Numbered from the stretch's first letter, positions 19,243-21,780 are shown. The stretch: DNA of 32,000 nucleotides from Mycoplasmoides genitalium G37 (GCF_000027325.1 NC_000908.2:330001-362000), one strand, 5' to 3'. The notes: a model not told the origin generated them from the sequence alone. A program made the numbers and translations.

Positions 19243-19272
19243 CAATCCCCCCATTCCCCCAACCTCTATTTT

Positions 19273-19674
19273 GTGTTACTAGTGCCTAAGGTGGTATTGG
19301 AGTATCACAACCTGAATAACCAAGTAGTCAAAGAGAGTTTGGAAGTGGAAGCAACTGATTCTTTTGATCCCACCCAAAGGTTGCAAAAAGATAGTCCAAT
19401 GAAGGATACAGGAAAGATGGGGGAGAAACTCCAAGAGACCATGTCATCAATGAGTGGTGGTGGGGCTACATCTCCTCGCAAAGCCCTCACCATTGAGGTG
19501 GAAAGGGGGAGTCAAAGTGATTCACTTTTAAAAAACGACTTTGCCAAAAAGCCACTGAAACATAAGAACAGTAGTGGGGAGGTGAAGTTGGATGCGAGTG
19601 GGGAGTTTACTGAGGCCTGAAAACCATTGTTGACTACTGATCAAATAGCAAGAGAGAAGGGGATGGGGGCGACT
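19273..19674 (+). repeat. MgPar block 1: mgpB-like segment, ending ...REKGMGAT at 19674 and followed by TAG at 19675-19677
   Basis: Track ORF 19273..19620, extended through TGA. The frame (p mod 3 = 1) is closed by TAG at 19675-19677. Confidence 0.8.
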
Positions 19675-19676
19675 TA

Positions 19677-20260
19677 GACTTTCTCCCCTGAATCGGCAAC
19701 AACAAACCCTTCTCCAACTCCCACACTGCTTCCCTTTCTTCTTCTTCTTCTTCCCCACTCCCCACTTTTTCTAACATCAATGTCGGGGTTAAATCAATGA
19801 TCACTCATCTCAACAAAGAAAACACCCGGTGGGTGTTTACCCCTAACTCTTCACCAGACATTTGAACGGGAGCAGGTTATAGAAAAGCTAATAACAACAA
19901 TAACGGCATCTCCTTGACAAGTGTGTTGCCTAGTAGCAATAGTAGTCAACAGTTTAATCCCAATTCAGATGATAATAAAGTCACTCAAGGTGGTGGCTCC
20001 CCAGCCAAAAAAACAACCACCTATTCCTTTTTACCCAATTCCATCAGTCCCACCAGTGACTGGATCAACGCATTGACTTTTACTAACAAAAATAACCCGC
20101 AGCGCAATCAACTGTTGCTCAGAAGCTTACTAGGAACTATCCCGGTATTGATCAATAAGAGTGGAACGGGAGATGAGTTTACCCATACGAGTGAGCAGAA
20201 ATGGGATAAAACGAATGAAAAAGATGGGAATTTACCTGGGTTTGGGGAGGTGAATGGTGG
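19677..20260 (+). repeat. MgPar block 2: mgpB-like segment from a non-adjacent part of mgpB, in a different frame from block 1
   Basis: Frame p mod 3 = 0 reads DFLPWIGNNKPFSNSHTASLSSSSSSPLPTFSNINVGVKSM...GFGEVNGG continuously under code 4. The similarity I recognise ends about 20260. Confidence 0.8.
19737..19751 (+). repeat. (TCT)5 trinucleotide tract encoding poly-Ser inside the mgpB-like block
   Basis: tct tct tct tct tct, read in the block-2 frame. Confidence 0.9.
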
Positions 20261-20406
20261 TTTTTATCAACTAAATAAAAAACTTATTAGCTTATTTTTA
20301 TTAGGTTTTTACTTATTTAATAGTTAAAAAAGTTTTGAATTTTTCTTAGTTTTTTATTTGTTTAATAGTTAAAAAACACTAGGCTTTACCTTTATTTAAT
20401 TAATAA
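20261..20406 (+). repeat. AT-rich spacer between the mgpB-like and mgpC-like parts, containing a 16-nt direct repeat
   Basis: tttaatagttaaaaaa occurs at 20316-20331 and again at 20361-20376. Multiple stops in all frames. Confidence 0.8.
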
Positions 20407-21780
20407 AACCTTTACCCCTATTACCAAACCATCCATAACACCAACTTGTTTGTGTTGTTCAAGTCTAGGGATGTAAAAGTTAAGTATGACAGTTCAAGTG
20501 GCTCAAATAACCAGATTAGTTTTGATTCAACTAGTCAAGCTAACAAACCCGCCTACATCGTTGAATTTACTAATTCCACCAACATTGGCATCAAGTGAAG
20601 GGTAGTGAAAAAATATCAGTTAGATGTACCGAATGTTTCTAGCAACATGAACGAAGTACTGAAAAATTTAATTCTTGAACAACCTTTGACTAAGTATACC
20701 TTAAACAGTAGTTTGGCTAAAGAGAAGGGTAAAACGCAAAGGGAGGTGCATCTGGGTAGTGGGCAAGCAAATCAGTGACGATCGATGCGTAATCAACATG
20801 GCCTAAACAACAATCCCAGTCCCAATGCATCAACCGGATTTAAACTCACTACCGGCAACGCATATAGAAAATTAAATGAGTCCTGACCAATTTATCAACC
20901 AATTGATGGGACCAAGCAGGGCAAAGGGAAGGATAGTAGTGGGTGGAGTTCAACAGAAGCAACAACGGCAAAAAATGATGCGCCCAGTGTTTCTGGAGGG
21001 GGATCAGACACCACTTCAAAATTTAAAAGTTACCTCAACACCAAGCAAGCGTTAGAGAGCATCGGCATCTTGTTTGATGGGGATGGAATGAGGAATGTGG
21101 TTACCCAGCTCTATTATGCTTCTACTAGCAAGCTAGCAGTCACCAACAACCACATTGTCGTGATGGGTAACAGCTTTCTACCCAGCTTGTGGTACTGGGT
21201 GGTGGAGCGGAGTGCAACAACTGATTCATCATCAAAACCCACCTGGTTTGCTAATACCAATTTAAACTGAGGGGAAGATAAACAAAAACAATTTGTTGAG
21301 AACCAGTTGGGGTATAAGGAAACTACCAGTACCAATTCCCACAACTTCCATTCCAAATCTTTCACCCAACCTGCATATCTGATCAGTGGCATTGACAGTG
21401 TCAATGATCAGTTGATCTTCAGTGGCTTTAAAGCGGGGAGTGTGGGGTATGATAGTAGTAGTAGTAGTAGTAGTAGTAGTAGTACCAAAGACCAAGCACT
21501 TGCTTGATCAACAACAACTAGCTTAGATAGTAAAACGGGGTATAGGGATCTAGTGACCAACGACACGGGGCTAAATGGTCCGATCAATGGGAGTTTTTCA
21601 ATCCAAGACACCTTCAGCTTTGTTGTTCCTTATTCGGGGAATCATACAAATTCAAGTGGTTCATCAGGAACCATTAAAACGGCTTATCCGGTGAAAAACA
21701 CAGAAAAATCAACTGTCAAGATCAATTCTTTGATCAACGCTACGCCGTTGAATAGTTATGGGGATGAGGGGATTGGGGTT
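20407..21780 (+). repeat. MgPar block 3: mgpC (P110)-like segment, one continuous frame under code 4
   Basis: Track ORFs 21070..21270, 21307..21507 and 21553..21825 share a frame. That frame is open from 20407 (after TAA TAA at 20401-20406), with only TGA interruptions. The P110-like similarity ends at ...NSYGDEGIGV, about 21780. Confidence 0.82.
21454..21483 (+). repeat. (AGT)10 trinucleotide repeat encoding poly-Ser inside the mgpC-like block
   Basis: Ten perfect AGT units, read directly from the sequence. Confidence 0.95.

Follow-up and report, generated by a model that had tools for sequence, protein, structure and literature searches.

MgPar 8 of Mycoplasma genitalium G37, a very probably silent archive cassette of mgpB and mgpC variable regions

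Architecture and identity of the island

We analysed a window of 32,000 nucleotides (nt) from the chromosome of Mycoplasma genitalium G37 (bases 330001-362000 of NC_000908.2, assembly GCF_000027325.1). The genome consists of one contig of 580,076 base pairs (bp) with a guanine-plus-cytosine (GC) content of 31.7%. The window contains a GC-rich island of 2.5 kilobases (kb), which is MgPar 8 and, with a probability of about 96%, a silent archive cassette of the adhesin genes mgpB and mgpC. Positions are counted from the first letter of the window unless they are given as genome positions. The GC content was 0.41-0.48 over 19150-20200 and 0.38-0.47 over 20500-21850 with a dip to 0.27 at 20200-20500 between the two GC-rich parts, compared to 0.25-0.31 in the flanks. 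A first-pass annotation, made from the sequence without knowledge of its origin, had described an island of raised GC at 19246-21780. The rise in GC was borne out, and the proposed bounds were at most 5 nt off those of the homology, which extends from 19241 to 21779.

The part of the window from 19001 to 22000 was compared with the whole genome by blastn, and at the protein level by tblastn; edges were set by global alignments. The reference was the MgPa expression site, whose open reading frames (ORFs) under genetic code 4 are located at genome positions 221570-225904 (MgpB, 1444 amino acids (aa)) and 225906-229067 (MgpC, 1053 aa). The expression site was matched three times, and eight other dispersed loci were matched in addition. 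The first block, at 19241-19673 on the plus strand, belongs to region B of mgpB and corresponds to MgpB aa 193-339, with 88% nucleotide identity to genome positions 222144-222585 and 86% identity at the aa level. It is followed on the same strand by a block of mgpB region EF at 19674-20257 (MgpB aa 765-961; 81% nucleotide identity to 223861-224445, 76.5% aa identity). An AT-rich spacer of 165 bp at 20258-20422, to which no strand is assigned, has a GC content of 18% and stops in all frames. The third block, at 20423-21779 on the plus strand, is derived from region KLM of mgpC (P110) and corresponds to MgpC aa 69-518 with 90% nucleotide identity to 226108-227458 and 89% aa identity. The region names follow the published nomenclature (PMC6105099, PMC3004944). 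With 1357 bp the KLM block is close in size to the 1.37-kb mgpC-like part that had been predicted, and the AT-rich spacer had likewise been placed correctly between the mgpB and mgpC parts. Only variable regions are covered by the homology, while the conserved parts of mgpB and mgpC are absent; the boundaries were sharp in blastn, tblastn and alignments alike.

The fusion of the two mgpB blocks could be defined to the nucleotide. The second blastn match begins at 19673, and in the global alignment identity is 100% through 19673 and then jumps instantly by about 1.3 kb within mgpB, so that the fusion point is exactly 19673/19674. The adhesin frame of block B spans 19213-19677; it reads through to GMGAT and ends with a TAG at 19675-19677 that is made by the junction itself. 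The frame of block EF opens at 19575 and turns MgpB-like at 19674. Because the block starts are 431 nt apart, B and EF are in different frames. The first-pass annotation had put a fusion with a frame change and a TAG at 19672-19677, which is exact.

The KLM adhesin frame is open from 20407 to 21825 (472 codons), and the KLM block matched the Pfam family MgpC at 5e-77. No Pfam family was obtained for the EF block alone, and for the B block the match to P1_N fell below the cut-off. B and EF are identified by direct alignment to mgpB. Adhesin chains in the PDB were matched by the KLM block (P110 residues 69-518) and the EF block (P140 residues 765-959), which for EF adds to the identification. 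Two tandem repeats were found by TRF, a serine-coding (TTC)6 in EF at 19736-19753 and a variable-number repeat (AGT)10 in KLM at 21453-21484.

The repeats of MgPa are known from the literature (Peterson 1995 and Iverson-Cabral 2006, as cited in PMC2169797 and PMC3004944), and one published primer allowed the island to be placed among them. Primer 8F4 for MgPar 8 was assigned to G37 (NC_000908) positions 350254-350283 by Ma et al. 2007 (PMC2169797). Within the window its 30-mer has a single occurrence, and the position, 20254-20283, corresponds to genome 350254-350283. Because the coordinates match exactly, the island sits at the published MgPar 8 locus. In the literature the MG192-homologous part of MgPar 8 is given as 1192-2546, which fits 20423-21779 if position 1 is at about 19232 of the window. 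The published element has the order B-EF-spacer-KLM and a variable-number AGT repeat of about ten units, as has the island. MgPar 8 thus is an already documented element, and we found no difference between the island and the element of the literature.

The MgPar family and exchange with the expression site

When the whole expression site was mapped on the genome, nine MgPar loci were obtained, all on the plus strand like the MgPa operon. In six of the nine (MgPars 1, 2, 4, 5, 7 and 8) a B block comes first and an EF block second. For five of these, MgPars 1, 2, 5, 7 and 8, the B|EF junction is identical to the letter over 14 bases before it (GGGATGGGGGCGAC) and 26 bases after it (TTAGACTTTCTCCCCTGAATCGGCAA), and the TAG created in the B frame by the fusion is common to all five. 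The shared fusion points are at genome positions 85995, 167609, 229864, 313246 and 349673, the last being position 19673 of the window. MgPar 4 has a different junction, in which mgpB aa 338 is joined to aa 777. The identity of the junction in five MgPars points to a fusion that probably arose once, in one ancestral cassette that was later copied, and not to a local accident.

The spacer, too, is a feature of the family. An alignment of six MgPars showed it to be built from a degenerate unit, about 45 nt long and including TTTAATAGTTAAAAAA. MgPars 1, 2, 4, 5 and 7 carry the unit at the place equivalent to that in MgPar 8, with copy numbers ranging from two to five: there are two copies in MgPars 8 and 5 and three to five in the others. 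The spacers of MgPars 8 and 5 are nearly identical. A nearly full-length KLM block is common to MgPars 2, 8 and 9. MgPar 2 has the full architecture of MgPar 8 (B, EF, spacer and full KLM), whereas MgPar 5 shares the junction of MgPar 8 but lacks the second half of KLM and carries region G in addition. In the variable segments MgPars 2 and 5 are 78-89% identical to MgPar 8.

Three of the cassettes could be compared with the expressed gene over nearly the whole of KLM. The expressed KLM region was aligned with MgPars 2, 8 and 9, which gave 238 substitution columns. At 40 of the 238 the expressed gene agrees with MgPar 8 only, at 33 with MgPar 2 only, at 14 with MgPar 9 only and at 46 with none of them. 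The column labels were strongly clustered, with 94 runs against 198 ± 5.6 in 5000 shuffles. Runs of agreement with MgPar 8 only are located, for example, at 20658-20676, 20986-20994 and 21570-21648, and runs with MgPar 2 only at 20779-20787 and 21217-21234. Judged from this pattern, the expressed mgpC is a mosaic of archive segments like those of MgPars 2, 8 and 9, as segmental recombination would leave. The stretches in which cassette and expression site are identical measure 25-131 nt.

Exchange of this very cassette has been observed experimentally. In G37 passage 35, a segment of about 155 nt was swapped reciprocally between MG192 (mgpC) and MgPar 8, along with a conversion of 4 nt, and in strain TW48-5G a reciprocal swap of MG192 with MgPar 8 comprised 561 bp (PMC2169797). 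The AGT repeat of MgPar 8 varies between 9 and 11 units (PMC2169797); the present sequence has 10. The exchange is dependent on RecA as well as on sigma20 (MG428), an alternative sigma factor that switches on the recombination genes in rare cells (Torres-Puig 2015, 2018; PMC4446450, PMC6105099). Recombination with certain MgPar regions leads to truncated adhesins and hence to phase variation (PMC6105099).

The first-pass annotation had proposed a donor cassette of the MgPar type for segmental exchange with the MgPa operon and antigenic and phase variation, and had let its case depend on nucleotide similarity to mgpB and mgpC. The blocks are 81-90% identical to the expression site, and the alignment to this site and the other MgPars, which it had suggested, mapped their boundaries. 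Together with the position of MgPar 8 and the published work (PMC2169797, PMC6105099) the homology supports its proposal.

Expression signals, reading frames and proposed function

The island was examined for signals by which it might be expressed where it lies. In tblastn the homology starts inside mgpB and mgpC, and no block carries the 5' end of a gene or a signal peptide. Directly ahead of the cassette a hairpin resembling an intrinsic terminator is located at 19211-19240 on the plus strand. It has 13 perfect pairs followed by a T run, a folding energy of -13.9 kcal/mol and a z of -6.0; none of 200 shuffles folded as well, and the base that comes next, 19241, is the first homologous one. 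From its sequence this terminator-like hairpin probably closes the transcription unit of acpP and tRNA-Trp directly before the cassette, as had been predicted by the annotation of a strong terminator at this place. No such structure was seen at the 3' end of the cassette, where no fold in 21775-21860 beat the shuffles on either strand.

Promoters in this group are marked mainly by a bare -10 box. The motif TANAAT occurs once in the 2.65 kb of 19201-21850 on both strands, and this single copy, at 19203, is ahead of the hairpin; averaged over the genome, there are 1.37 per kb and strand. The AT-rich spacer at 20258-20422 has no TANAAT box, nor does any spacer unit of MgPars 1, 2, 4, 5, 7 and 8. 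Sites of the sigma70 type numbered 4 in 18800-22300 compared to 9.3 ± 3.1 in shuffles. The consensus for sigma20 is TTGTCA-N18/19-ATTWAT (PMC4446450). With up to one mismatch it was not found in the island, and with two mismatches there were three matches, all on the minus strand and at about the background rate (851 genome-wide). Elsewhere in the genome, sites with one mismatch are located at 428158 on the minus strand, at the left edge of MgPar 9, which is the published recA promoter, and at 229129 on the plus strand, upstream of MgPar 5, in the stretch that separates its B block from the mgpC stop. MgPar 5 thus differs from MgPar 8, which has no such site upstream. At the level of sequence motifs the earlier statement that the island lacks a plausible start or promoter therefore holds, the scans being negative or depleted and the homology beginning inside the genes. 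With no gene start, no recognisable promoter, a stop at the junction and a spacer filled with stops, the cassette is probably not expressed in place.

No finding speaks against a silent archive, although the reading has its limits. Silence is judged here from motifs, and the promoters of M. genitalium are weakly defined. The blocks contain in-frame ATG, GTG and TTG codons, as any coding sequence would, and a fragment might conceivably be translated from such internal codons. MgPars 4 and 5 do carry transcripts driven by sigma20 (PMC6105099). The mosaic of the expressed mgpC, for its part, could partly reflect exchange among MgPars or uneven conservation.

One alternative is that the cassette, or its mgpC-like frame of 472 codons, is expressed in place. 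The product could be a truncated protein resembling the adhesins or a sense RNA with a regulatory role, and transcription could enter from the upstream operon by read-through or start at an unrecognised promoter within the AT-rich spacer. The sigma20-driven transcripts of MgPars 4 and 5 speak for it, as do the TTG, GTG and ATG codons that the frame at 20407-21825 has in frame near its start. In addition, MG_285 and MG_286, the neighbours on the upstream side and on the same strand, respond to sigma20 with a 16-18-fold induction (PMC6105099). Yet the frame has neither a signal peptide nor a 5' gene end, its homology beginning only at MgpC aa 69; a good terminator separates the upstream operon from the cassette; and neither a TANAAT box in the spacer nor a sigma20 consensus in the island was found. 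Moreover, the published RNA sequencing (RNA-seq) for sigma20 yielded transcripts for MgPars 4 and 5 only (PMC6105099). We consider expression in place very unlikely.

The blocks themselves are long open frames under code 4, as the first-pass annotation had stated for each of them. The adhesin frame has no stop in 144 codons of B, 197 of EF and 452 of KLM, whereas each of the five remaining frames is interrupted by 1-42 stops. Base composition alone would leave a frame open with a chance of 2e-3 for B, 4e-4 for EF and 6e-10 for KLM; in 5000 mononucleotide shuffles open frames were obtained 12 times for B, twice for EF and never for KLM. All 13 indels relative to the expression site are multiples of three, each of 3 or 6 nt: three of 3 nt in B, and four of 3 nt plus one of 6 nt in both EF and KLM. 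The ratio of nonsynonymous to synonymous substitution (dN/dS, Nei-Gojobori) against the expression site was 0.30 for B, 0.37 for EF and 0.36 for KLM. Because of the absence of stops, the whole-codon indels and the low dN/dS, we conclude that the blocks are kept protein-competent, in the manner of sequence that is tested regularly in the form of protein. Maintained partial ORFs, indels in multiples of three and AT-rich spacers containing stops are generic traits of MgPars (Ma et al. 2010, PMC3004944).

The truncated pieces, the out-of-frame fusion and the lack of starts and promoters might also suggest pseudogene fragments without function, left to decay after an old duplication of adhesin pieces. 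This rival is effectively refuted. Under neutral decay one would expect stops, indels that shift the frame and a dN/dS of about 1, whereas the 793 codons contain no stop, each of the 13 indels is a multiple of three and dN/dS is 0.30-0.37; moreover, exchange with the expressed gene has been observed in experiments (PMC2169797).

MgPar 8 very probably is a donor cassette, which would work as follows. It would archive alternative versions of three variable regions, B and EF of mgpB and KLM of mgpC. Anchored at the identical stretches of 25-131 nt, homologous recombination would carry the divergent segments in between into mgpB or mgpC. The transfer could be reciprocal, with the cassette taking up the old expressed segment, or could proceed by gene conversion, and would give rise to antigenic variants. 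An exchange across a block boundary would result in truncated, non-adherent phase variants; at the B|EF junction or the spacer of MgPar 8 such an event would delete or truncate the adhesin genes and so cause phase variation. The cassette would stay open, keep its indels to whole codons and remain under purifying selection because the archived segments are periodically expressed and selected as protein.

With the MgPars a genome of 580 kb can make nearly unlimited variants of its two immunodominant adhesins, a capacity believed to lie behind persistent infection. What we add to the known MgPar 8, namely the shared junction, the dN/dS values, the depletion of -10 boxes and the synteny described below, is descriptive in every case. 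The B|EF junction shared, along with its TAG, by five MgPars and the dN/dS of 0.3-0.4 are additions that may be new in wording only. Block boundaries were recognised from the sequence alone to within a few bases; what is known of the MgPar system has not been changed by this.

Flanking genes and related systems

Upstream of the cassette four genes follow each other on the plus strand. The first two, at 17212-18258 and 18243-18851, were assigned by Pfam to DUF5443 and DUF5452 and are taken to be MG_285 and MG_286 from their position next to acpP and the orthology to MPN404 (PMC6105099). They are followed by the acyl-carrier-protein gene acpP at 18865-19137 and by the gene of the UGA-reading tRNA-Trp(UCA) at 19128-19202, which flanks the cassette (ARAGORN, anticodon tca; Rfam tRNA, 64 bits). 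The tRNA gene overlaps the acpP ORF, starting 10 nt ahead of its end (19128-19137). With the standard code ARAGORN labelled it a selenocysteine tRNA. We rejected this label, as it is a normal tRNA of 75 nt with the anticodon UCA, TGA codes for tryptophan in this organism, and code 4 gives tRNA-Trp. A second tRNA-Trp (CCA) at genome 306741-306814 is 79% identical to it. Beyond the tRNA, the Rfam scan of 18800-22300 found nothing.

On the other side an ORF of the DUF237/DUF240 family (MG_288-like) is located at 21791-23086 on the minus strand. It converges on the cassette, from whose end its 3' end is separated by 11 nt. At the DNA level a paralogue near genome position 123.4 kb shares 71% identity with the 3' part of the ORF.

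The position of MgPar 8 on the same strand directly downstream of the unit MG_285-MG_286(-acpP-tRNA-Trp), with only one AT-rich hairpin between, raised the idea of a transcription-assisted choice of the donor. Read-through from the unit, when fired by sigma20, could enter MgPar 8 and open the cassette for RecA-mediated exchange, in parallel to the sigma20-driven transcripts in MgPars 4 and 5. If so, the placement of MgPar 8 would be functional and possibly old, as the M. pneumoniae-like genome described below has adhesin repeats in the corresponding interval. We regard this as improbable, because published RNA-seq shows MgPars 4 and 5 only and because the hairpin is a good terminator. The source of the induction of MG_285 was sought as well. 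Within 300 nt upstream of its ATG at 17217 no match to the sigma20 consensus with up to two mismatches was found; thus the published sigma20 promoter of MG_285 must deviate more from the consensus or lie elsewhere.

The same chromosomal position was inspected in a related genome (G007, 817 kb, M. pneumoniae-like). There, orthologues of MG_285, MG_286, acpP and tRNA-Trp(UCA) on one side and of a p37-type transporter operon on the other bracket an interval of about 12 kb. It contains P1_C-like, P1_N-like and MgpC-like ORFs on the same strand (7528-9156, 11337-12269 and 12366-14357 in G007:C1:483500-503400), and differs from the MgPar 8 locus by its size and by the GDSL-lipase, lipoprotein and DUF16 genes interposed. 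Adhesin repeats at this position therefore seem to be older than the split of the two species.

M. pneumoniae has the elements RepMP2/3, RepMP4 and RepMP5, which are silent and copy parts of the adhesin genes P1 and ORF6. MgPar 8 shares with them the principle of silent partial adhesin-gene copies, but membership among the RepMP elements was rejected: its blocks are 81-90% identical to mgpB and mgpC of their own genome at the nucleotide level and only 35-58% identical to the G007 copies at the aa level. MgPar 8 represents an analogous, syntenic system.

Silent cassettes also serve antigenic variation in Neisseria (pilS/pilE). Like the MgPars, this system and those of Borrelia (vls) and Anaplasma (msp2) combine an archive of promoterless partial copies with one expression site and segmental homologous recombination, while their proteins are unrelated to the adhesins of M. 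genitalium. Borrelia vls and the msp2 pseudogenes of Anaplasma were named as comparable systems by Ma et al. 2007 (PMC2169797). Unlike in these systems, exchange in M. genitalium is often reciprocal and thereby alters the archive as well, and a single cassette supplies two genes.

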